From positions 1-39,802 of IMG/VR virus record IMGVR_UViG_2671180139_000002: a stretch of 39,802 nt of DNA; one strand, 5' to 3'. Positions 3,401 through 39,330 of the stretch are shown piece after piece (positions within the stretch are counted from its first letter, which is position 1; each line of letters begins with the position of its first letter). The notes beneath the pieces were generated by a model. It was not told where the DNA came from and made no database searches. It saw only the letters and a program-made list of their open reading frames with translations. This DNA comes from a virus. Lineage: Duplodnaviria; Heunggongvirae; Uroviricota; Caudoviricetes. Made by a program: the position numbers and the translations under genes.

Positions 3401-5130
3401 GTGGAGAGCTCGCGGACCTGCTTGTCGTGCGCGTCGGCCGCTACACGAGCCTGCTGGTCATAGGCACGCGAGGTCGCGGTCAGGCTGTCCTGGATCCGGC
3501 TCAGTTCGAGCTGCAGACCCTTGCTGACCTCGTCCTTCTCCTGCTGCCCAGTCCAGGTATCCAGCTTTTCGCGCAGCTTCGGGATCTTCGCCTCGAGATC
3601 GGCGATCTGCTGAAGCGTGTCGTCGTACCACTGACGGTTCGGGTCGTTCTCCGACAGGGTGTCGAAGCCCGCCTTCTTGAGCTGGTCGCGCTGTGCATAG
3701 AGCTTGTCGAGCTGCGCCTGCTGCTCCTTGACGTAGCCGGACGCGTCCTCGATCTGCTTGCGGGAGACAGCGCCGAACTTCTCCAGCTCCTGCCAAGCGT
3801 CCCGCGCCTTATCCTGAAACAGGCCGAAGTAGTTCGCGACCGCGACCACACCCATACCCAGCGCCGGCAGGATGCCGACAATGGAGGTGAAGCCGGTGAG
3901 CAACATCGGCGCGACGGAGGCCAGCCCTTCAGACGTGAGTGAAACGGCCGCCAATGCATCCCGAAGACTGCGAATACCGGTGACGGCTCCGCCCCAGCCG
4001 GCGAAGGCATTACCCACTACGGACGCCTGATTGCGCAGGAGCTGCAACTGAAGGCCGAGTTCGGTGAACCCGCTGGCGATCAGCTCATGCAGGGCGAGCA
4101 CCATCTTGCCGCCGAACCATGCAACGAAAACCGCGCCGACCTGCTCAATGACGCCGCGGTACTCGATCGCGGTCTCGATGACCTCACGAAACCCGGTGAT
4201 CAAGCTGCTGAGGCCGCGGCCGAGGGAATCGGCCAGGCCGTTCGCGAACTGCCCGGAGAGCAGGTTGTTGAGGTCGATGACCTGCTGCTTCACCGTATCG
4301 AAGAAGCCAGCCTGCCCCACCTTGAGGGCGAGGCTCTGCATGTTGGTGTTGACGTTCGAGATGAGGCCGTTCCAGGTGCTCATCTGAGCCTGGGCAGCGC
4401 CACCAAAGGCGCGCTCCATCTCCAGCGAGAGAGCTTCGATCGCGGGTCGTGCCTGAACCGTGCCCGTGTTGATCTTCTGGAACAGCTCGGTGACGGAAAC
4501 GCCCATGGAACGCGCCATGAGCTCGGTGGCGCGCGGCATCGCCTCGCCCAACTGCTGGCGCAGCTCTTCCATCTGGATGACGCCCTTACCCGCCATCTGG
4601 GAGATCGCGAGGGTGGCGCGCTGCAGGGTCTCGTCGGTGCCACCCATCGCGGCGACACCATCCATCAGAGCCTGCATCGAGCCCGCCATCGGGTCGATGC
4701 CGGTCGACTTGAGCTGGACGTAAGCCTTGGTCATACCCTGCAGCGAGTACGGGACCTGCAGGGCCTTCTGGCGGAGCCAATCGACCTGATCGGCCGCATC
4801 CTTGATCGGATCGGCGGCCTTGCTCATTCCCTGGAGCTGCTTGGTAAGCCGCTCCATCTCGGCGTTGACCTTGATGATATCGCCGAGCCAGCCGGTCGCG
4901 ACATCGTGGAGCTTGCCGAAAGCGCCGGTCGCGACACCGGCGACGATGGAGACGTCGCGAAGGGTTCCGAGGAAGCCCTTCGAGCTGTCAGTCATGCGCT
5001 CCAGGGCAACGATGTTGCCGTTCACGGTGCTCTGGAACTGCTGGACAGACTGCCCGGCGTGCAGAATCCGGGAAGTGAACTCCCCGGTATCAAGCTCCAG
5101 TTCAACGCGAATTCCGGCCATACTCACCAC
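448..5130 (-). CDS. Tail tape measure protein with an internal lytic transglycosylase-like domain
   Basis: 1560 aa, Ala/Gln-rich helical; N-terminal tape-measure motif (GKGVIQMEELRQQLGEAMP); internal HSESSGNANA...GAAQFIKGTW; start GTG 5130 or ATG 5121. Confidence 0.92.
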   Translation of the reverse strand: MVSMAGIRVELELDTGEFTSRILHAGQSVQQFQSTVNGNIVALERMTDSSKGFLGTLRDVSIVAGVATGAFGKLHDVATGWLGDIIKVNAEMERLTKQLQGMSKAADPIKDAADQVDWLRQKALQVPYSLQGMTKAYVQLKSTGIDPMAGSMQALMDGVAAMGGTDETLQRATLAISQMAGKGVIQMEELRQQLGEAMPRATELMARSMGVSVTELFQKINTGTVQARPAIEALSLEMERAFGGAAQAQMSTWNGLISNVNTNMQSLALKVGQAGFFDTVKQQVIDLNNLLSGQFANGLADSLGRGLSSLITGFREVIETAIEYRGVIEQVGAVFVAWFGGKMVLALHELIASGFTELGLQLQLLRNQASVVGNAFAGWGGAVTGIRSLRDALAAVSLTSEGLASVAPMLLTGFTSIVGILPALGMGVVAVANYFGLFQDKARDAWQELEKFGAVSRKQIEDASGYVKEQQAQLDKLYAQRDQLKKAGFDTLSENDPNRQWYDDTLQQIADLEAKIPKLREKLDTWTGQQEKDEVSKGLQLELSRIQDSLTATSRAYDQQARVAADAHDKQVRELSTAHKSIKDEDERYQQESRKAALDFYDKQIADLETYLTHYQEQAANAVDAVQKGTALSVADNITGQIRTLQQQRESTRSLISGVPMAPKAVNDDKAFQKGAQLLESLTDKATAYKAALQGADVEVMNLTQLLQNGKYGDMGRQEVQDLTDKLIAAKAEVRELQELMEGRNKLDNDLRAAQASAEESYYKEVIRSAELGKTKLTETDKIAIGVKAGLYKGVGPNATPMQRAVEGINTQLANTQTAAQNAARTMQSTVFGGPIINAANTLINAVQRLNEAWSSFRGNVSGTNVAGALSFDPSAVRSIGGAFSSLSGIIPGAGFLGKLIHSESSGNANAQSSTSSALGAAQFIKGTWMQFIREMHSELIQKDGKGGVMNSAQLLDMRRNAAMSVEAATWYANKNAQVLQSKGFQANDWQLKLAHMLDSSGALKVLQAAPDTLLSALLGADQISANKWQNVTAGQLKSRLAAQFGSNRTFAPTTAPIAGGQYAGPKNPGDPTLAAPAGLNGDEVSQFNATQQIEQLANAKKLENDLAETFLKTKDAIAQATEKADGFGAHVSALRKQIKEGVYGADKNPDSDRYKELIKLTKDWDDADAKAKKNQRLRSSVDSGQDRLASQAKEAADKQAEAMARLNDPSATKQSDGYFSLSRQWDDQIQKLGELYGKDSQNYKDALEQKKVALQNFQNSEVTSTIAGLAQQDAELERSLMAQGAARDNSLQQEIDRTQKLLDNFKGSAEERQRLEDAIQKHIRLVREKTAQESPIAKELQQYADFGGNLQKGMAGWIDSGLDGLATFVTTGKADFASLTQSILKDLAKMSLQWATSGLTRSLKGGGAGKGAAAGGGAGKGGGLAKLTGTAHTGGVIGASNLRSTMVNPAIFANAPKFHTGGVIRGRGLGPDEVPIVARRGEGVFTPEQMAAMGSAGGGNMQAITINSPVTVNASGGTHDQNADLAKQVSKQVEGSMRSLVVNELQKQMRPGGIAYGRR

Positions 5131-5135
5131 CTGAA

Positions 5136-5153
5136 TAAGTCAATATTGACTAC
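5136..5153. promoter_or_regulatory. Palindromic motif copy
   Basis: TAAGTCAATATTGACTAC, upstream of the tape measure gene. Confidence 0.75.
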
Positions 5154-5180
5154 CGACGGCGGGCAGGCGTTTCCCGGCCT

Positions 5181-5522
5181 TTAGAGCTTTCCCAGCCCCT
5201 TGAGCGCGAGAAGACCGTCCCGGTCGTATGCTGCTTCCTGCATGGCGAGCTGGCCCTCGTCGTACTCGACGACGGTCCCGATCTGCTTCCGAAGCCCCGT
5301 GAGAAGCTCTCGAACGCCCTCGGGTGTGTGGACCTGGGCGAGGATGGTCGCGGTGCGGTAGTCCCGCTCGGCGGCCATTCGGTCGATGTTCTTGTGAAGG
5401 AGCCAGAACATCTCGATCGGCAGATCGAGAACGTCTCTGGGCTTCATTGCGTATTCAGAGACGATGCGGGTGAAGATGTAGCCGAAGTCGACGGCTCTTA
5501 CTGCCCCGCCGCCGGAGGGTTT
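5181..5522 (-). CDS. Tail assembly chaperone C-terminal (gpGT-like) frame, reached by -1 frameshift; the ORF track starts it at ATG 5447
   Basis: Frame is open from the slippery heptamer at 5516-5522 and contains coding-like VDFGYIFTRIVSEY upstream of the first ATG; lies between the chaperone and tape measure genes. Confidence 0.7.
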   Translation of the reverse strand, partial: KPSGGGAVRAVDFGYIFTRIVSEYAMKPRDVLDLPIEMFWLLHKNIDRMAAERDYRTATILAQVHTPEGVRELLTGLRKQIGTVVEYDEGQLAMQEAAYDRDGLLALKGLGKL

Positions 5523-5857
5523 GCGGTAGCCTCAGCCTCCGCGCTCGCTTCACCCTGCTTCTGCCCGTTGTTCTTGTGGGCAAAATCCAGGAGCGCGTTG
5601 AGCTTCACCAGCTCCAGCTTCTTGAGCTGCTCGACGGTCATCGTCGGGAAGGCGCGCACGAGCATCTGGATGACGGTGTCGACCTCGTCTTCGAGCTTGC
5701 CGCTGACGCCCAGCGACTGGATGAGCTTGGTGTTCTCGACGAAGTCCTCGACCGTGACCGGCTTGAGATGATGCTCCACGCCGCCGAGCTTCACGACGAA
5801 TTCGTTCTCGGTGAGGTCAATGGCGTCGAGGTCGAGATACTTGACGGAATCGGTCAT
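5498..5857 (-). CDS. Tail assembly chaperone (gpG-like)
   Basis: Position between tail tube and tape measure genes; ends just after A-AAC-CCT. Confidence 0.75.
   Translation of the reverse strand: MTDSVKYLDLDAIDLTENEFVVKLGGVEHHLKPVTVEDFVENTKLIQSLGVSGKLEDEVDTVIQMLVRAFPTMTVEQLKKLELVKLNALLDFAHKNNGQKQGEASAEAEATANPPAAGQ
5516..5522 (-). other. Candidate -1 ribosomal slippery site A AAC CCT
   Basis: Fits X XXY YYZ in the gpG-like reading frame. Confidence 0.65.
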
Positions 5858-23514: not shown

Positions 23515-23587
23515 CCCGGGCTGGCCCTTTAACCGAACGTTAGTTAACGATGTGGCGTTTTAGCGAAAACGCGCGAGCCGCCACATC

Positions 23588-24232
23588 ATGCCTGTATCTC
23601 TCAGCATCGCCTGTCTTTCGCAGAAAGGCGGCGTCGGAAAATCGACACTCTCCCGCCTGATCGCCCGCACCTATGCCGCCGCGGAGTGGCGCGTGAAGAT
23701 CGCGGACTTCAATCCCAAGCAGAAAACCAGCGTCGACTGGGTCGCCCTCCGCCTGGAGCAGGGTGTCACCCCGGAGATCGCCGCGGAAGCCTTCAACTCC
23801 GTCAAGACGGCCCTCAAGCAGGACTACGATCTGATGGTGTTCGACGGGCGCCCGGATTCCGAGCCCACAACCCTCGAGATCGCCAAGGAGGCGGATCTCA
23901 TCGTGCTGCCCTCCGGCGTCTCCCTGGACGACATGAAGCCCCAGGTCCTCTTCGCCCACGAGCTCCGCGCCCGCGGTATCGACGCCAAGAAGATCATGTT
24001 CGTGATCAACAAAACGGCCGACAGCCAGGTCGCGATCGCGGATGCACACCGGTATCTCTCCGACGCCGGCTACAAGGTCGCCAAGAACGACCTGCCGATG
24101 AAGACCGGCTACCAGATCGCCCAGAACAGCGGCCGAGCCGTCTCGGAGACGGGCTTTCCCACGCTCAACGAGCGCGCCGAGGCGCTTGCAGGTGAAATCG
24201 TCGCCCGCGCGACGGAATTGACGGGTGAATGA
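23588..24232 (+). CDS. parA: ParA family partition ATPase
   Basis: KGGVGKST deviant Walker A; DFN..Q; FDGRP. Confidence 0.92.
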   Translation: MPVSLSIACLSQKGGVGKSTLSRLIARTYAAAEWRVKIADFNPKQKTSVDWVALRLEQGVTPEIAAEAFNSVKTALKQDYDLMVFDGRPDSEPTTLEIAKEADLIVLPSGVSLDDMKPQVLFAHELRARGIDAKKIMFVINKTADSQVAIADAHRYLSDAGYKVAKNDLPMKTGYQIAQNSGRAVSETGFPTLNERAEALAGEIVARATELTGE

Positions 24233-24489
24233 CGATGGCGAGCAATGTTCCCAAGCCCCCAAGGGCACCCAGGCAGCGTCTGATGGTCTCGGCGCCGACG
24301 CCGACTTTCACGCCCGACAACCTGTCGAAGTCACCTGAGGAGCTGAAGGATCTCAACTTCAAGGTCTCGCCGGATCTGCATCGCGACTTCAAGTTGACGG
24401 CGACCGCCTGGGGCATGTCAATGAAGGAGCTTCTCGAGGCCGCCTACAAGGGCTGGGTGGAGAAGCACGGGAAGTTCCCAGGGGAGTGA
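24229..24489 (+). CDS. Small RHH-type centromere-binding partner (type Ib ParG-like)
   Basis: Coupled to parA; flexible N-terminus, then LNFKVSPDLHRDFKLTATAWGMSMKELL. Confidence 0.75.
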   Translation: MTMASNVPKPPRAPRQRLMVSAPTPTFTPDNLSKSPEELKDLNFKVSPDLHRDFKLTATAWGMSMKELLEAAYKGWVEKHGKFPGE

Positions 24490-24732
24490 TGATGCGGGGG
24501 TCTTGGTGACGATCTCAATGGGTGGATGCCCGTGTAGTGGCAACCCGAATTGTTGATTTGCTAATCGGCAAATCAGCTATAGTTCACATTGGACGACATT
24601 CGAGAGGGCATCCCAATGCGGAGTGCAGCGCTGCGGCGGCCAGCGTCATCCACGTCCAGGCCGGAAAGACAAAGACCTTCCATCGGGCACAACTCCATCT
24701 GGAAGACCTCTTCGGAGGGAAAGGCAGGGAGA

Positions 24733-25068
24733 ATGTACGCAATCGCATTCGACATGGATCAGGAGGCGCTAGCTGCGCACTATCCAGGTAATTCTCCTAA
24801 CAACGCTTATGAGTCCGTGCGCCGAGTTTTGGAGCGATTCGGTTTTCATCGGCAGCAAGGAAGCGTTTATTTCGGCAACGATACCGTGACGCCGGTCACA
24901 TGCGTCATGGCAGTGCAGGCGATGCAGAAACGGTATCCTTGGTTCGGGAAGGCCGTTTCCGACATTCGGATGCTTCGCATCGAAGAGCACAGCGATTTGC
25001 TTCCGGCGATTGCGGAACTGGAACTTGAATTAGAAGAGCCAGACGCGAATTTTGCTACCTCAGCTTAG
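24733..25068 (+). CDS. vapD: VapD family (Cas2-like) nuclease
   Basis: MYAIAFDMD...AY..V...L...GF.RQQGSVY...VSDIRMLRIEE..DL. Confidence 0.88.
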   Translation: MYAIAFDMDQEALAAHYPGNSPNNAYESVRRVLERFGFHRQQGSVYFGNDTVTPVTCVMAVQAMQKRYPWFGKAVSDIRMLRIEEHSDLLPAIAELELELEEPDANFATSA

Positions 25069-25702: not shown

Positions 25703-26134
25703 ACCGACAGGTTTGCATTACGACTGACTTCATTGCGAGTCATCTCCGCGCGAGCTGCGATCAGGTGGTTCCGAATATTCAAATTGAGCGAACGAGCTCC
25801 TGAGCGCCGGAGATGTCGGGAATGTTGCGGGATGTTGGGTGAGCCAAGGCTAGGAACCGCGGGTTCCTGCGGGCGCCAAGGATAGGTCACCGGAAGAGAG
25901 GCGAGCCAGAAGGCATCCCCCTGGCACACGCAAAATTTTTCTAGGACATCGACCCCTGTGGCGGGGAAGTCACGCGCAAGCACACCACCAATCCCACTCG
26001 CAACGCGCTCGCATGTGACTCGAAAGTCACACGCTCTAGAACGCTTTTAGAAGCTCACTGACAGCGATTTAGCGAATGAGCTACGAGCGTAGCAGAGAGC
26101 GCTAGAAACGCTCTCTGTGTCGCTCTGTGATCGT

Positions 26135-26722
26135 TTATTGCAGCTTCGCAAGCAGCGCTTTCGTCACGTCGCTTTCTGTGTTGAGCGTGTAGCAGATCGC
26201 ATTGCTTTCGTCGCGCGTTTCGCGAAGCACATCGAACATTTGCAGCGCATTGATTGAAGATGACGACTGCGTTGAAGCAGTATTAGCAGCGACGTGTTTC
26301 ATGTACTTAACAATGATCTTTTCGCGCTTTGCATCGCTCTTGCAAGACATAGAGCACGCGCTGATAGCGTCTTTGTGTGTCATGCGAAGTTCTGCGTTCT
26401 GAAATGCTTGCGCAGTCAGAAGAATAGCGCGCGTGTAGTGATTAAGCTGCGCTGCGCTTGCGCAAGCGCGAGCAACGTTGATGACTTTTTCAGAGGCATA
26501 CACGTTGAAGCGTGCATTGCTACGTTCTGCGCGATTGATGAAAGTAGCATCGACGTTTGCAGCGAGCATGATGCTTGCGATTGCGTCGTGATCGACGCTC
26601 TTTTTCATCGTCGCGAGCGTGTTTTGCATCGACGTGTTTTCGCTATTCTTAGCGCTTTCGTAAGTAGCGCGAGCGTCGAAAGCGGCGATGAGCGAAGCGC
26701 GGTAGGCAGTGACGTCGGACAT
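26135..26722 (-). CDS. Hypothetical 195-aa protein lacking Gly/Pro/Trp; paralog of 28638-29636
   Basis: ATG 26722 preceded by GAGAG and a sigma70-like promoter; aligns by eye with the 332-aa protein (LAANxD, NVYA, TAxTQxSS). Confidence 0.85.
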   Translation of the reverse strand: MSDVTAYRASLIAAFDARATYESAKNSENTSMQNTLATMKKSVDHDAIASIMLAANVDATFINRAERSNARFNVYASEKVINVARACASAAQLNHYTRAILLTAQAFQNAELRMTHKDAISACSMSCKSDAKREKIIVKYMKHVAANTASTQSSSSINALQMFDVLRETRDESNAICYTLNTESDVTKALLAKLQ

Positions 26723-26766
26723 GGTGTTCTCTCTGTGTTTGTTATGTGTCGTTATCGACAAGATGC

Positions 26767-26794
26767 AGAATAGAGCTTTGACAGAACGGGTCAA
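26767..26794 (-). promoter_or_regulatory. Sigma70-like promoter TTGACC-N16-TATTCT
   Basis: -35 at 26789-26794 and -10 at 26767-26772, about 45 bp upstream of ATG 26722. Confidence 0.5.
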
Positions 26795-27110
26795 GCACAA
26801 GAACGCATAGCTGTGATGCATAAATATGTGAGATAGTGCGTTGACAGAGATAGCGCAAAATGCAATTGTGTTTTCAGAGATTGAGAGGAGCGAACGATGA
26901 AGCGAACGGATGACACGAGCTGACCGAAACGGCGCAAAAGCCACAGTGGCCCAGGCGCCACATCCCAGCCCCGATCGGCACCGCGCCAGACCGCGGACCC
27001 CAGTGGCTCTTCCGCCACAACACCCCAGCCCTCCTGCCCACGGCGCCCCGAGGCGCCCCATGTCCGGCCCGCGGTTTATGCCATGGCTCTCCATGGCGCC
27101 GTTCCGCGGA

Positions 27111-27135
27111 TCCCACTGACCCAAGCCGTACCTAA
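27111..27135. repeat. 25-bp direct repeat copy 1 (TCCCACTGACCCAAGCCGTACCTAA)
   Basis: Identical to 28507-28531. Confidence 0.95.
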
Positions 27136-27334
27136 AATCCGCGCCGCCCGGAGATTTCGCCCTTCCCGGGCCATGAAATCCAACCCATGCGTGCTCATGG
27201 CGAGAAGCTGGCGAGACCGTGGCGAATATGTGTCCCTGAGAGCCCCATGGGGCACCGGGGAGCAACCGGCACCATGGAGCCCCGTAGACGCGCTCCGAAG
27301 AGAAGGGGCGCCGTAGCACCCCTCCCCTGTCGCG

Positions 27335-27682
27335 TCAGATCGCGACGTTCAATCCCATCTCGATGGCGAGCGCTGCAGCGGCGTCGTTGGCGCGCTGCGT
27401 CTTGGAGCGGCGGCGAAGAATGGCGACCCGTTCGCGCTTGCGCTCCGAGATGAGCCTACGCGCTTGCTCCCGCACGTCCTGCATCGTGATGCCCTCGGGG
27501 CAAGCACGCTCGAAGCGAACCCAGAGCTTCGCCCACTGATCGCGAGCCCGATCGCAGAGCAGCTCCTGCTCCGCCGTCTGGCGCACGCCGAAGACGATCT
27601 CAAACGAGCTGTCCATGAACTCGATGTAGTCAGCGGCGCGGGTGATGACAGAGGGGGCGACGAGAGTGATGCGGGACGACAT
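27335..27682 (-). CDS. Hypothetical protein (115 aa)
   Basis: GGAG RBS upstream of ATG 27682. Confidence 0.65.
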   Translation of the reverse strand: MSSRITLVAPSVITRAADYIEFMDSSFEIVFGVRQTAEQELLCDRARDQWAKLWVRFERACPEGITMQDVREQARRLISERKRERVAILRRRSKTQRANDAAAALAIEMGLNVAI

Positions 27683-27934
27683 TTGCTTGCTCCGTGTTCG
27701 TGTCGTTTTCGACATCGTCACTGTCGCGCGTCCGCTTCTGGGATGCGGGCGGGAGCGGATGGCGCGTGCGCGCTCCGGAGACGCTTGGGAGGTCATGGCC
27801 GCGGGAGACGGCGATCGCCGGCGCCATGGTCATCCATGGAGCGCCACGGCCTGAGTTTCACGGACCATGGCGGCCTGCGGAGAAAAGACCTGGCCTGGCC
27901 TCGAGAGACCAGACCGGCCTATGGTGCGTGGACC

Positions 27935-28165
27935 TCAGTAGCCCCAGGGGCTCAGATCGGGGATGCGCCCGAACCGTCGGTGGTACTTGCGATAGGTCTT
28001 GGCGATCAGCGTCGCCTCCGAGAGCATCATGGAGCGTTGCTCATGGGCGATGTGGCGCACATAGGCGCCGAACTCGTCGCTCCAGGTCTGAACCCGAAGC
28101 TGCCACCGGAAGAGCTTCCTGGGGTCGCGCTCCAGGCGAACGATGATGGAGGTCCGCGCGCTCAT
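27935..28165 (-). CDS. Hypothetical protein (76 aa)
   Basis: TGATG-coupled to the 38-aa upstream ORF. Confidence 0.55.
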   Translation of the reverse strand: MSARTSIIVRLERDPRKLFRWQLRVQTWSDEFGAYVRHIAHEQRSMMLSEATLIAKTYRKYHRRFGRIPDLSPWGY

Positions 28166-28281
28166 CAGCGGACGCTCGCGAGGACGATGACGAACGTCAG
28201 GAAGAGCACGGTGCAGGCGAACAGATCGGAGTTCACATAGCGCCAAAGCATCAGGTCGGCGGTGTTGAGGAACTTCTTCAT
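28165..28281 (-). CDS. Small 38-aa membrane peptide (MKKFLNTADL...FLTFVIVLASVR)
   Basis: Below the ORF-track cutoff; GGAG RBS, hydrophobic C-terminus, stop overlaps the next ATG. Confidence 0.55.
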   Translation of the reverse strand: MKKFLNTADLMLWRYVNSDLFACTVLFLTFVIVLASVR

Positions 28282-28294
28282 CTGCTATCTCCGT

Positions 28295-28312
28295 CCAGTC
28301 AGTGTTGACTGT
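28295..28312. promoter_or_regulatory. Palindromic motif copy
   Basis: CCAGTCAGTGTTGACTGT, upstream of ATG 28281. Confidence 0.6.
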
Positions 28313-28506
28313 CAGAGTGTCGCGCAGCTCGAGACGGGATGCGGTTGGCACCTGGTGGGATCGCAAGTGGCTTCCCATGGAGCTCCTGGGAGCCCCGTGG
28401 AGCGCGTTTGTGCCTTGGAGCCCCACCGATGCCCTCGGGACGCCATGGAACCCGCCCTGGGGCCCCTGAGTCGCGGCAGAGCCATGGAGGAACGTCGTTC
28501 CTCGGG

Positions 28507-28531
28507 TCCCACTGACCCAAGCCGTACCTAA
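28507..28531. repeat. 25-bp direct repeat copy 2
   Basis: Identical to 27111-27135. Confidence 0.95.
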
Positions 28532-28595
28532 CCGCGCACGCGACCGTACCTGGTTTCCGCCTGGCGCGGCAGCTCCATGGGATCCTCGTGCCGCG

Positions 28596-28620
28596 AAAAA
28601 GGGACGCCGAAGCGTCCCTT
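28596..28620 (-). terminator. Intrinsic terminator
   Basis: AAGGGACGC-TTCG-GCGTCCCTT with a T-tract on the - strand, just after the stop at 28638. Confidence 0.85.
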
Positions 28621-28637
28621 CTCCATCCCTCCTTTCG

Positions 28638-29636
28638 TTACGCTGCGAGGAGCTCCTCGATCTTCCGGGCGACCGGGGTATCGGTCACGCGGTAGACGGG
28701 GTTGCGGGTCGAGCCCTGGACCGAGACGGCGCCGATCGTCTGCAGGGCCTGCATGGTCGAGGAGGCTTGCGTGGGCGCGGTCGAGGCGGAGACCGTGTGC
28801 GAGACCAGGTGCTTCCTGAGCGCCGCTTCCACGCGGACCTTGTCGGAGGCTGCAGCCTTGGCGAGCTCACCGGTGAAGTCGAGGCCCGCGGCCCGGAAGC
28901 GGAAGAGCGACTTCATGCAGGCGATGTTGATGGCGTTGGTCAGCGCCCCACCTCCGAGCATGGAGGCGATGTCGGCGAACTTGCCGATGGCGTAGACGTT
29001 GTAGCGGGACCCGTCATGGCGCGACCCGTTCATGAAGGCGGGGTCGATGTTGGCGGCGAGGAGGACCCTGGCGACACCGGGGCGGACCATCTTCTGCCGG
29101 GCCGACTTGAGGGTGCGCTGAATGTTGGCGTTGTCCTCGTTCTTCCACTTCTCGAAGTCGGCGCGCTCGTCGATCTCCTTGCCGATGGCGTGCAGCATGG
29201 TGTCGACCTCTTCCTCGTCGACGGCGTCGAGCATGGCGTCGAAGGTCTCCGGCTCGTTGTTGCCCTCGGCCTGCTCCTCCTGGACCTCGTGGATGGCCTC
29301 GGGTTCCTGGACCTCGATGGCCTCGAGGTGGAGGACCGCTGCTTCCAGGTCCTTCTCGGAGACGGGCTCGTCGCTCTCCGGAGCGGCTTCCGGTTGGGCC
29401 TCGGTCTCCAGGGTCGCTTCGGCGACTTCCTCAGCCGAGAGCTCGATGGTAGCAGGTTCGTCCTGGGGCGCAGCGGTGTCGGCGCTCTCCGGAGCGATGA
29501 TCTCCATCGCGTCTTCGGCGATCGTCTCGACGACGGGCTGACCCTCGGCAACGATCTCGGAGACCGCGTTGATGAGTTCGGCGTCGCTCAAGGCGGCGAC
29601 GGTGGCGGATGCGATGTTTTTCTTGCGACGTGTCAT
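28638..29636 (-). CDS. Hypothetical protein with an acidic N-terminal extension; paralog of 26135-26722
   Basis: High-GC3 codon usage, own terminator, homology to the island gene. Confidence 0.85.
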   Translation of the reverse strand: MTRRKKNIASATVAALSDAELINAVSEIVAEGQPVVETIAEDAMEIIAPESADTAAPQDEPATIELSAEEVAEATLETEAQPEAAPESDEPVSEKDLEAAVLHLEAIEVQEPEAIHEVQEEQAEGNNEPETFDAMLDAVDEEEVDTMLHAIGKEIDERADFEKWKNEDNANIQRTLKSARQKMVRPGVARVLLAANIDPAFMNGSRHDGSRYNVYAIGKFADIASMLGGGALTNAINIACMKSLFRFRAAGLDFTGELAKAAASDKVRVEAALRKHLVSHTVSASTAPTQASSTMQALQTIGAVSVQGSTRNPVYRVTDTPVARKIEELLAA

Positions 29637-30489
29637 AGTATTCTAGTCCTCTGCGTTGCTCAGCGCTCGTTTGCGTCGCTGACAAGTATCAATTTACTGA
29701 TTGAGGCTAGGGGTACTACTGGAACGTAGTGGGACGTTTTCTTTCTTATTTCGCGCCATGGTGTACACACGCGCGCACGTACTCTATATATAAGCAATCA
29801 CCTGCGCCGCCCGACCATGGTATGACTTGAAGTCCCATGGTTCACCTTGGTGAGGATCTCCACGCCGGATGATGGCTTTCCTCGGAAGTGTGGATGAGGA
29901 CCTCCATGGCACCCCGAGGCAGATCATGGCTCTCCATGGTCTCGAGGCTATTCCGGGAATCCTGGAATGAGGACAATCCATGGGGCGCCATGCCGATGAG
30001 GCTTTCGCCATAGAGGTTCATGGGGCGTGGCGCGTGTGGATCGCCATAGTGAGGACGCCCGTGGAAGCGCGGAAAGTCCGTACCAGGTCCCGCCTCTACC
30101 GGGACATGCGTCCGTACCTAATTTCCGGCTGAGCGGCGAACCATGGAGAAATGCCGCCAAAAGAAAAGGCGCTCCGAAGAGCGCCTTGAGAGTTGAAGCG
30201 CGGGTGTCGAGGCCGCGCAAACACAGAGTGTCCGGCGAAGCTGCTCGGTGAGCGTCGTTCGCTGAACAAGATCGTTTATAGCTGATCGAACGAGGCTGTC
30301 ACGAGGGAGAAGGCGGATTTTCGAGGATGAGGCTTTCAAAGAGGACGTCGCCGGTCCCTCCTCTAGATCCACACCCTCACGCATCTATTCCCCACACACG
30401 GGCACACCTCTGTCCCTCTATACGCGGTCACTCTCTCTTGGGGTCTCTGGTGCGCATTCCGGAGAGTCTCTACCTCTTTGGGTATGGTG

Positions 30490-30561: not shown

Positions 30562-30964
30562 TCGTTGGTTTTCTCACTCTTCCGGAGATGGTCGCGCTCT
30601 CTGTCTCTCTTAGGCAGAAGCTGTCAGTCTCTTCCGGGAGCGATCGTTTTCGATGCTATTTTCCGGGCTCAGATGCGTTTCGCTCGAATGTTCCCTTTCT
30701 TGAAACATTTGGATTTGGGAAATCGCGGAGTTCTGGGCTTTTGATGATGTTGCAACGGGTGCTATGGGTTTCGGCTGTAACTTAGCTGAAACATAGCACC
30801 AACATTTCATATACATAGCCATCAAGACGTAATTAGTCGTCTGATGGGAAATGTTTCAGGCGGCCTGAGGGTTTGAGACCTGCCCTCGGCCGTGGCCTGA
30901 TGGACCAGTACCTGTGTTCGGTGGACTAGAGCGTGGGTCAATGATGGCTGATGTCGAACCGGTC

Positions 30965-39022: not shown

Positions 39023-39259
39023 CTACTGCTGAGCGGCGTTCTCCGCAGCGCGCTCACGCAAGCGCCGCATGTTCTCTTCCGAGGTCGAGCGCACCGCCGC
39101 TTTCACAGAACTGATCAGCGACTGGCGATCGGCCAGGGAATACTCATCCAGGGGTTTCACTGGGCATTCGCAGCCGGGGTTCCGACGAACCCACTCACGG
39201 CGCATAGCCACGAGGAAGGTCTTCGTCGCGACCAGTGCCTGATCATCGCTAACTTGCAT
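39023..39259 (-). CDS. Hypothetical protein
   Basis: Shares its leader with the gene at 28281. Confidence 0.6.
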   Translation of the reverse strand: MQVSDDQALVATKTFLVAMRREWVRRNPGCECPVKPLDEYSLADRQSLISSVKAAVRSTSEENMRRLRERAAENAAQQ

Positions 39260-39330
39260 CTGCTATCCGTCTAAATCAGTGTTCATTGATCATAGCGAAG
39301 CAGGCTCGGGTTGCGATCGGATGCTCTCGG

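Follow-up and report, generated by a model that had tools for sequence, protein, structure and literature searches.

The stretch of DNA analysed here (the window, 39,802 nucleotides) constitutes the first 39.8 kb of the 109-kb contig C37, an element of 61% G+C in a genome of 4.2 Mb and 66% G+C, which by its gene content and its relatives is classed as a phage-plasmid of the Rhizobium phage RHEph10/B1VFA type. Four non-coding blocks of this window (A, 26723-27334; B, 27683-27934; C, 28282-28637; D, 29637-30200), which are interspersed with five leftward genes, carry arrays of the hexamer CC-N2-GG, often in the form CCATGG, in which many sites follow one another at a pitch of 10 bp. We read these blocks as cis-acting lattices for cooperative binding at the level of the DNA, most likely recognised by proteins of the winged-helix family F, two members of which, F and its paralog F2, are encoded in the same module, and we assign to this reading a probability of about 50%. 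Each block would form a lattice in which one CC-N2-GG unit falls on each helical turn and all units lie on the same side of the helix, and such a placement on one face suits the side-by-side cooperative binding of a two-fold symmetric protein. Palindromic cores on one helix face are read by symmetric dimers, for example by ribbon-helix-helix (RHH) proteins and by TubR. In the window as well as in phage B1VFA, array units lie on either side of the putative F promoter patch, so that the simplest function would be a cooperative occupation of the blocks that switches the early transcription units. According to the proposed mechanism, the blocks would be the non-coding scaffold of a compact early-gene module, the F/F2 pair encoded inside this module would bind them, and binding would switch early units on or off and organise the terminal repeat, which the module very probably constitutes, after DNA entry. 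Further roles in the handling of this repeat are possible, such as end formation, DNA entry or the pairing of its two copies for circularisation. Protein binding at the sites, F/F2 as the binder and the effect of binding are what we infer from the features described below.

New are the CC-N2-GG unit itself, the selection on four bases, the tie of the arrays to a pair of winged-helix paralogs and to a segment devoid of CC and GG, and the placement within a terminal repeat; in the literature searched, no published description of these arrays or of their arrangement was found. The finding describes a cis-element with an unusually small determinant, CC and GG, i.e., four bases per turn, and it names two candidate reader proteins. 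There is a real chance that the design of arrays plus CC/GG-free segment represents a new mechanism.

Phased CC-N2-GG sites in the window and in its relatives

A sequence-only reading of the window had listed 18 CCATGG sites outside the coding sequences, CCNNGG sites spaced by exactly 10 bp, and a location of each block upstream of a leftward gene. All 18 sites were confirmed, all of them within the intergenic blocks A-D and none in a real gene, and every listed run of CCNNGG sites at 10 bp is present. Each block does precede a leftward gene and, in addition, starts just past the terminator of the previous gene. Compared to 2000 dinucleotide-preserving shuffles, blocks A-D are strongly enriched both in CCATGG (18 versus 0.8, maximum 5) and in CCNNGG (40 versus 14.2 +/- 3.5, maximum 30), and the window as a whole contains 26 CCATGG versus 9.55 +/- 2.88 in shuffles. 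The proposed 10-bp periodicity was likewise recovered: 10 pairs of sites in the blocks are exactly 10 bp apart versus 0.11 (maximum 2) in the shuffles, and a random placement of the same 40 sites yields 0.84 such pairs, with 0 of 20000 trials reaching 10. Shuffles and phasing thus support a non-random, phased array at the DNA level. Eight of the 27 CCATGG-N4-CCNNGG pairs of the 4.2-Mb genome are located in this locus, and phased sites that lack C at position 3 and G at position 4 of the hexamer all fall, as far as C37 is concerned, at 27038-29914 (13 of 13), compared to 0.02 per kb in the rest of the genome.

Two other origins of the motif were considered and rejected. A coding role of the ATG in CCATGG is not apparent, the open reading frames (ORFs) starting there being devoid of a coding signature, and in the sister clade the site reads CCTAGG, which puts a stop codon on either strand. 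A host repetitive element, such as a repetitive extragenic palindrome or a miniature inverted-repeat transposable element, does not fit the finding that the motif pairs and an oriented 25-nt element that accompanies them are restricted to this locus in the 4.2-Mb genome.

The comparison was extended to six Rhizobium phage records and 30 IMG/VR contigs of about 115-120 kb. The arrays are conserved in these relatives, in which CCNNGG clusters occur at the same syntenic places, i.e., upstream and downstream of F as well as between the small genes; the small genes themselves have no homologues across the loci, though the arrays persist. Pooled over 32 loci, distances between CCNNGG pairs peak at 10 bp (208 pairs) and 11 bp (71), at 20 bp (100) and 21 bp (45) and at 30 bp (67), as compared to about 25-30 pairs at other distances. 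The two central bases differ by lineage: most relatives have CCATGG, the V1VFA-S/B1VFA/X66 clade has CCTAGG, and others have mixtures, with further centres such as CCGTGG and CCGCGG at equivalent places. One locus (L033:6729-6775) contains five tandem units with the centres CG, TA, GT, CG and TT. The pooled logo shows fixed bases at CC and GG alone; position 3 tends not to be C and position 4 not to be G, and the 4-bp spacer is unconserved. For the two clades that are close enough to align, the CC/GG core columns are variable in 1 of 80 cases versus 162 of 1314 other non-coding columns (clade 1; p 9e-4) and in 28 of 76 versus 974 of 1345 (clade 2; p 4e-10), and the centre columns vary no differently from the non-coding background. 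Purifying selection acts on CC and GG alone, not on centre or spacer. As judged from this comparison, the selected unit is CC-N2-GG, one per helical turn, and CCATGG is a lineage habit. The phased array of the sequence-only reading therefore stands, whereas CCATGG as its conserved unit has to be replaced by CC-N2-GG, and the idea that CCATGG represents two back-to-back CCA targets has to be abandoned, given that relatives carry CCTAGG, CCGTGG, CCGCGG and others at the same places. For the postulated CC/GG-reading protein, the conservation of the core columns bears out the CC/GG pair as determinant, and the reader proteins themselves would be those weighed in the following section.

The variation of the centre also bears on the suggestion that the arrays are clustered targets of restriction-modification or DNA modification systems of the NcoI, StyI or BsaJI type, which would serve as decoys or as methylation switches. 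CCATGG, CCTAGG and CCNNGG are known Type II specificities, and CCATGG is approximately 2-fold under-represented in the remainder of C37 (15 versus 27.6 expected). Nevertheless, we consider this explanation to be very improbable: the centre varies within single arrays as well as between relatives, so that no single restriction specificity is conserved, 10-bp phasing plays no part in Type II recognition, and the methyltransferase families PF00145 and PF01555, to which the search was confined, match the chromosomal contigs C11, C30, C28 and C29 only, and not C37.

Alternatively, the repeats might act in RNA, where self-complementary CCAUGG in 5' leaders would govern translation or stability. Relative to shuffles, blocks C and D have the more stable folds (z -4.9 and -3.4), and a large part of each array would end up in RNA should the oriented 25-nt element act as a promoter. 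However, low z values are expected from any set of palindromes plus an included terminator, and the spacing tracks the helical repeat of DNA (10, 20, 30). CC and GG are conserved symmetrically, with centre and spacer free and no co-varying partners, the first array of B1VFA is located upstream of a terminator and thus outside any leader, and the CC/GG-free segment that accompanies the arrays is independent of strand and orientation. Searches for tRNAs and Rfam families returned nothing, without a covariance-model match at gathering score in the window. Taken together, an action in RNA appears improbable, and cooperative binding to the DNA is the better account of the arrays.

F-family proteins as candidate readers and the CC/GG-free segment

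The F family is the sole protein family common to all loci. A homologue of F is present in all relatives and two paralogs in nearly all of them, amounting to 71 members in 37 loci. In total, at least 361 F-family proteins were found, many of them on contigs of 112-118 kb, and phage-plasmids of the RHEph10/pLM21S1/B1VFA type are common in Rhizobium, Mesorhizobium, Methylobacterium and soil viromes; a search with F in 401 genomes of the same order gave one distant match only, and the contig scan none. The C-terminal domain of F was predicted with a confidence score (pLDDT) of 86, and its residues 67-174 form a winged helix in this model, with a VIA-align Z score of 9.6 to AF1382 and many matches of the MarR/ArsR/TubR type. 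The family furthermore has a weak profile match to the ArsR-type protein NmtR (E 0.009). Foldseek returned no match with E < 0.001 for the F domain against the PDB; the fold call rests on VIA-align and on this weak ArsR-type profile match. A TA.TQ.SS motif at the start of the recognition helix is invariant, which in the predicted fold fits an invariant CC/GG target. F is located among the arrays, F2 in the CC/GG-free stretch. The paralogs, which the sequence-only reading had listed among several possible binders, fit best as readers, being the only conserved proteins of the module and possessing a winged helix with an invariant recognition helix; that F/F2 are indeed the readers is close to an even chance or slightly below. 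The N-terminal half of F is long, highly acidic and of low complexity, varies in length in the relatives and is missing from F2, and it could serve as a DNA mimic or as an autoinhibitory tail. In RHEph10, the annotated coding sequence gp142 (L002:4994-5884) aligns to the F family only out of frame, the homologous frame being located at approximately 5001-5765, so that the GenBank annotation is probably wrong. Another small protein of the module, the 115-aa protein, has an N-terminus (SRITLVAPSVITRAADYIEF) that by eye looks RHH-like, without a family match; it has no homologue in the relatives and therefore cannot be the general reader.

The segment 25995-26683, which contains F2, is the only CC/GG-free stretch of at least 150 bp in the 4.2-Mb genome and will be called the desert. 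In 27 of 31 usable loci the second paralog lies within such a stretch of 200-1530 bp, in either orientation, and across relatives the desert is independent of strand and orientation. Arrays and desert occur together: 25 of the 27 loci with a desert have at least seven phased sites, and three of the four loci without it have two or fewer. The number of phased sites does not scale significantly with desert length (Spearman rho 0.17), so it is presence or absence alone that co-occurs. An end segment purged of every CC/GG points to a process that would respond to even one such site. Two side observations concern this neighbourhood. TTAGCGA-type repeats occur upstream of parA (23515-23587) and at the outer edge of the desert (26040-26100), and a gene for a Cas2-like protein (24589-25068, plus strand; PF09827, E 5e-6) is located between the ParA-RHH operon and the desert, without a homologue in related loci.

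In this alphaproteobacterial family of phage-plasmids, which is widespread, arrays and desert of the virion chromosome might belong to one system that reads a dinucleotide step, in which a CC/GG-purged leader end encodes F2 and the remainder of the repeat is the CC-N2-GG lattice; we put this forward as a tentative and rather doubtful extension. The naked leader would enter and be expressed, and the winged-helix protein would then load onto the lattice, and this loading would gate further entry, protect or pair the copies of the repeat for circularisation and shut off early genes. If true, it would constitute a new mechanism of end handling that is set by the presence or absence of one base step.

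Several observations weigh against cooperative lattices read by the F family. Strictly phased sites are missing from two loci, L015 and L020, that nevertheless retain F, F2 and the desert, and a cooperative binder alone does not account for the purge of every CC/GG from the desert. The winged-helix matches are generic (Z 7-9.6), and such folds also mediate contacts between proteins. None of the invariant positions of the recognition helix is an Arg or Lys, an uncommon situation for a helix that reads guanine. Lineages with TQASS in this helix have mostly AT centres and those with TQKSS have TA, GT or GC centres, but this link is confounded by phylogeny and has exceptions, so that it is only a hint. 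Finally, the assignment to a terminal repeat set out in the following rests on two published lengths in relatives and applies to the window by synteny only.

Probable terminal repeat and comparison with known systems

Phages B1VFA and V1VFA-S have fixed termini and direct terminal repeats of 3605 and about 3939 bp, respectively, the position of which is not stated (PMC12509600). We mapped B1VFA base by base onto V1VFA-S and tested, for each start, whether a segment of 3605 bp corresponds to 3939 bp in V1VFA-S. Among 94890 testable starts, only those at 39631-39808 fit both repeat lengths within 5 bp. Upstream of F, this interval lies at the first array, and the corresponding ends are located just beyond F2. 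Measured from the first phased CCNNGG pair through to the final desert base, the distance amounts to 3603 bp in B1VFA and 3938 bp in V1VFA-S. These values lie within 1-2 bp of the published lengths, with the outer edge of the desert at the end of the repeat in both phages, and very probably identify arrays plus desert as the terminal repeat. Nearly all genes of B1VFA run one way, and the region of arrays, F and desert is the natural end of this series. Very probably, therefore, the direct terminal repeat is made up of the arrays, F, the small genes and the desert, and, again very probably, one physical end opens with a CC-N2-GG pair and the other closes with a CC/GG-free segment. The window shows the plasmid state with one copy, in which the equivalent repeat segment, by synteny, would extend from 25995 to at least 30146. 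Two other proxies for the termini were discarded: contig ends of the IMG/VR relatives fall at no consistent position, and the record starts of B1VFA and V1VFA-S in GenBank are arbitrary, with no repeat feature annotated.

One array lies at the repeat boundary, and for this reason a genome-end signal is the strongest rival of a regulatory lattice. The arrays would then be structural signals, either sites recognised or wrapped by the small terminase in repeat formation or a pause in DNA injection like the injection stop signal (iss) of phage T5, and they would be read by a terminase, tail or portal protein or by a host protein. Ring-shaped small terminases are thought to wrap phased repeats. In B1VFA and V1VFA-S the first phased pair (CCGCGG-N4-CCACGG) is located 2 bp or less from the inferred left end of the repeat, and the contrast known from T5-like phages, in which untranslated repeats are kept while ORFs vary, is seen here as well. 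However, only one of the four or five arrays is at the boundary, the others being internal, beside promoters and after terminators; the arrays contain no pairs of DnaA boxes, and nothing ties the terminase genes, which are about 10 kb away, to the motif. The genome-end explanation is thus possible, though it is clearly less probable than binding lattices beside the early promoters.

T5-like phages are also among the closest known parallels to the module. Their long terminal repeat contains three untranslated repeat regions that are conserved, and the ORFs there vary (bioRxiv 10.1101/866236). Both systems have conserved non-coding repeat blocks within the long direct terminal repeat of a siphovirus of approximately 120 kb, which here applies to the fixed-end repeats of B1VFA and V1VFA-S, and in both the blocks are interspersed with fast-evolving early ORFs, few proteins being conserved. 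They differ in that the T5 blocks are built from long repeats, both direct and inverted, with DnaA boxes in pairs, compared to 6-bp CC-N2-GG units at a 10-bp pitch here, where the arrays consist of CC-N2-GG only and the CTTTACA repeats of B1VFA lie outside the repeat. The T5 proteins have no homology to those of this family, no end segment devoid of CC/GG has been described for T5, and two-step injection is a feature of T5 that would be only conjecture for the present family. Should the end-handling model prove right, T5 would be joined by a second, independent case of early events controlled by repeats in a long terminal repeat. The non-coding region 30700-30860 of the window, which lies just beyond the putative repeat, carries the repeats TGAAACAT/ATGTTTCA, and in B1VFA (L042) six DnaA-box-like copies of CTTTACA(C/T) are located at 39100-39320, likewise outside the putative repeat; these repeats recall the iss region of T5, which overruns the repeat boundary.

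In SPO1-like and Twort-like phages, the host-takeover modules in the terminal repeat consist of numerous small early genes that have individual promoters and terminators, and the present module shows the same layout of small early genes inside the repeat. Their repeats are longer (8-13 kb), and neither a phased minimal motif nor a segment free of a dinucleotide has been described there. By analogy, the early-module layout looks like that shared by T5, SPO1 and Twort-like phages, and with its small orphan genes that have their own terminator and promoter in the terminal repeat, the module has the appearance of an early region that is expressed first. A further likeness, that one short motif recurs at several transcription units with presumed cooperative occupancy, is found in the omega protein of pSM19035 with its heptad arrays and in the stoperators of cluster A mycobacteriophages; here, however, the motif is palindromic, strictly phased and limited to one module of approximately 4 kb instead of being genome-wide.

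Short tandem units at about one per helical turn with an adjoining gene for a small protein of the DNA-binding type are furthermore known from filament centromeres, of which tubC/TubR (winged helix, 12-bp repeats), pSK41 parC/ParR (RHH, 10-bp half repeats) and TP228 parH/ParG were compared. The likeness to tubC/TubR consists of a winged-helix gene beside arrays of 10-bp pitch, and the fold matches of F include TubR; the resemblance extends to the fold only. Beside F, no motor of the TubZ or ParM type came to light, where the neighbours scanned have no Pfam match and no dedicated search for TubZ was made. The present arrays differ in being spread over four or five blocks flanking separate promoters and in conserving only four bases per unit, and the ParA promoter is without the motif. 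This last point bears directly on the suggestion, also made in the sequence-only reading, that the arrays are a centromere bound by the ParA-linked RHH protein, that is, a type Ib partition centromere of ParA (23588-24232) and the RHH protein (24229-24489), bound as in TP228 parH/OF or pB171 parC. RHH dimers read short repeats in one major groove at a pitch of 8-11 bp, and genes for ParA and a small RHH protein are present 2.4-5.6 kb from the arrays, and in 26-27 of 37 loci. The region upstream of parA (23515-23587), however, has no CCNNGG and instead contains TTAGCGA-type repeats (TTAGTTAACG and TTTTAGCGAAAACG), and the arrays are set apart from the par operon by the desert and by further genes. 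Across loci the arrays follow F and the terminal repeat, not parA, and several array-bearing loci (L013, L031) have no ParA or RHH gene within 6 kb. We therefore regard a partition centromere as unlikely and retain the F-family proteins as the preferred readers.

Layout of the module

Read leftward, the module repeats one plan four times: terminator, array, promoter region, gene. The first unit comprises a terminator, block D and gene F, the second the hairpin after F, block C and the genes for the 38-aa and 76-aa proteins, the third a further terminator, block B and the 115-aa gene, and the last the hairpin after the 115-aa gene, block A and gene F2 (Table 1). All module genes were scanned against Pfam and PHROGs, and none of their proteins has a family match. 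The AT-rich patch in block D is likely the -10 region of the F promoter, and TATAAT is found at the same place in B1VFA. The promoter scan of the region 25.9-31.0 kb reported a single sigma-70-like match, upstream of F2.

Table 1. Coordinates of the features of the array module in the window (aa, amino acids).
Feature	Position	Strand	Remarks
CC/GG-free stretch (desert)	25995..26683	.	25995-26494 and 26496-26683, interrupted by one GG
Gene F2, 195 aa	26135..26722	-	Paralog of the F C-terminal domain, 30% identity, without acidic extension
Sigma-70-like promoter match TTGACC-16-TATTCT	26767..26794	-	Upstream of F2; consensus match alone
Block A array	26950..27277	.	CCATGG 27081, 27091, 27245, 27272; thirteen CCNNGG in block
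Block A phased pairs	27038/27048, 27081/27091, 27245/27255		
Oriented 25-nt element, copy 1	27111..27135	-	
G+C-rich terminator-like hairpin after the 115-aa gene	27300..27325	-	By eye; not reported by the terminator scan; start and end approximate
115-aa gene	27335..27682	-	Lineage-specific, without family match
Block B array	27799..27870	.	CCATGG 27824, 27834, 27865; phased run 27824/27834/27844
Terminator hairpin after the 76-aa gene	27892..27915	-	
76-aa protein gene	27935-28165	-	Lineage-specific
38-aa membrane peptide gene	28165-28281	-	Lineage-specific
Block C array	28375..28580	.	CCATGG 28375, 28443, 28482, 28575; eleven CCNNGG in block
Block C phased runs	28375/28385/28395 and 28433/28443		
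Oriented 25-nt element, copy 2	28507..28531	-	Gene strand: TTAGGTACGGCTTGGGTCAGTGGGA
Terminator hairpin after F	28598..28625	-	GGGACGC-TTCG-GCGTCCC, then T run
Gene F, 332 aa	28638..29636	-	Acidic low-complexity N-terminal half, conserved C-terminal domain ending in predicted winged helix
Block D array	29756..30146	.	CCATGG 29756, 29815, 29835, 29904, 29934, 29978, 30141
Block D other CCNNGG	29845, 29880, 29914, 30059		Block upstream of and around the F promoter region
Block D phased runs	29835/29845 and 29904/29914/(29924 TCATGG)/29934		
AT-rich patch TATATATA	29780..29800	-	Between block D array sites, the part at about 29786-29795 flanked by CCATGG; by eye
Oriented element, partial third copy CCGTACCTAA	30112-30121		
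Terminator hairpin and T run	30166..30187	-	Closes the upstream transcription unit; block D begins directly after it

The oriented 25-nt element comes after two of the terminators of the window. An element of approximately 26 nt with the consensus GGGGAACGGCTTAGGATCAAGGGATC is found in the relatives L024, L027-L030 and L037, where it occurs twice per repeat, on the gene strand only and directly past terminators. Judged by this position and orientation, the element may be a promoter for the phage-encoded sigma factor that is annotated in B1VFA.

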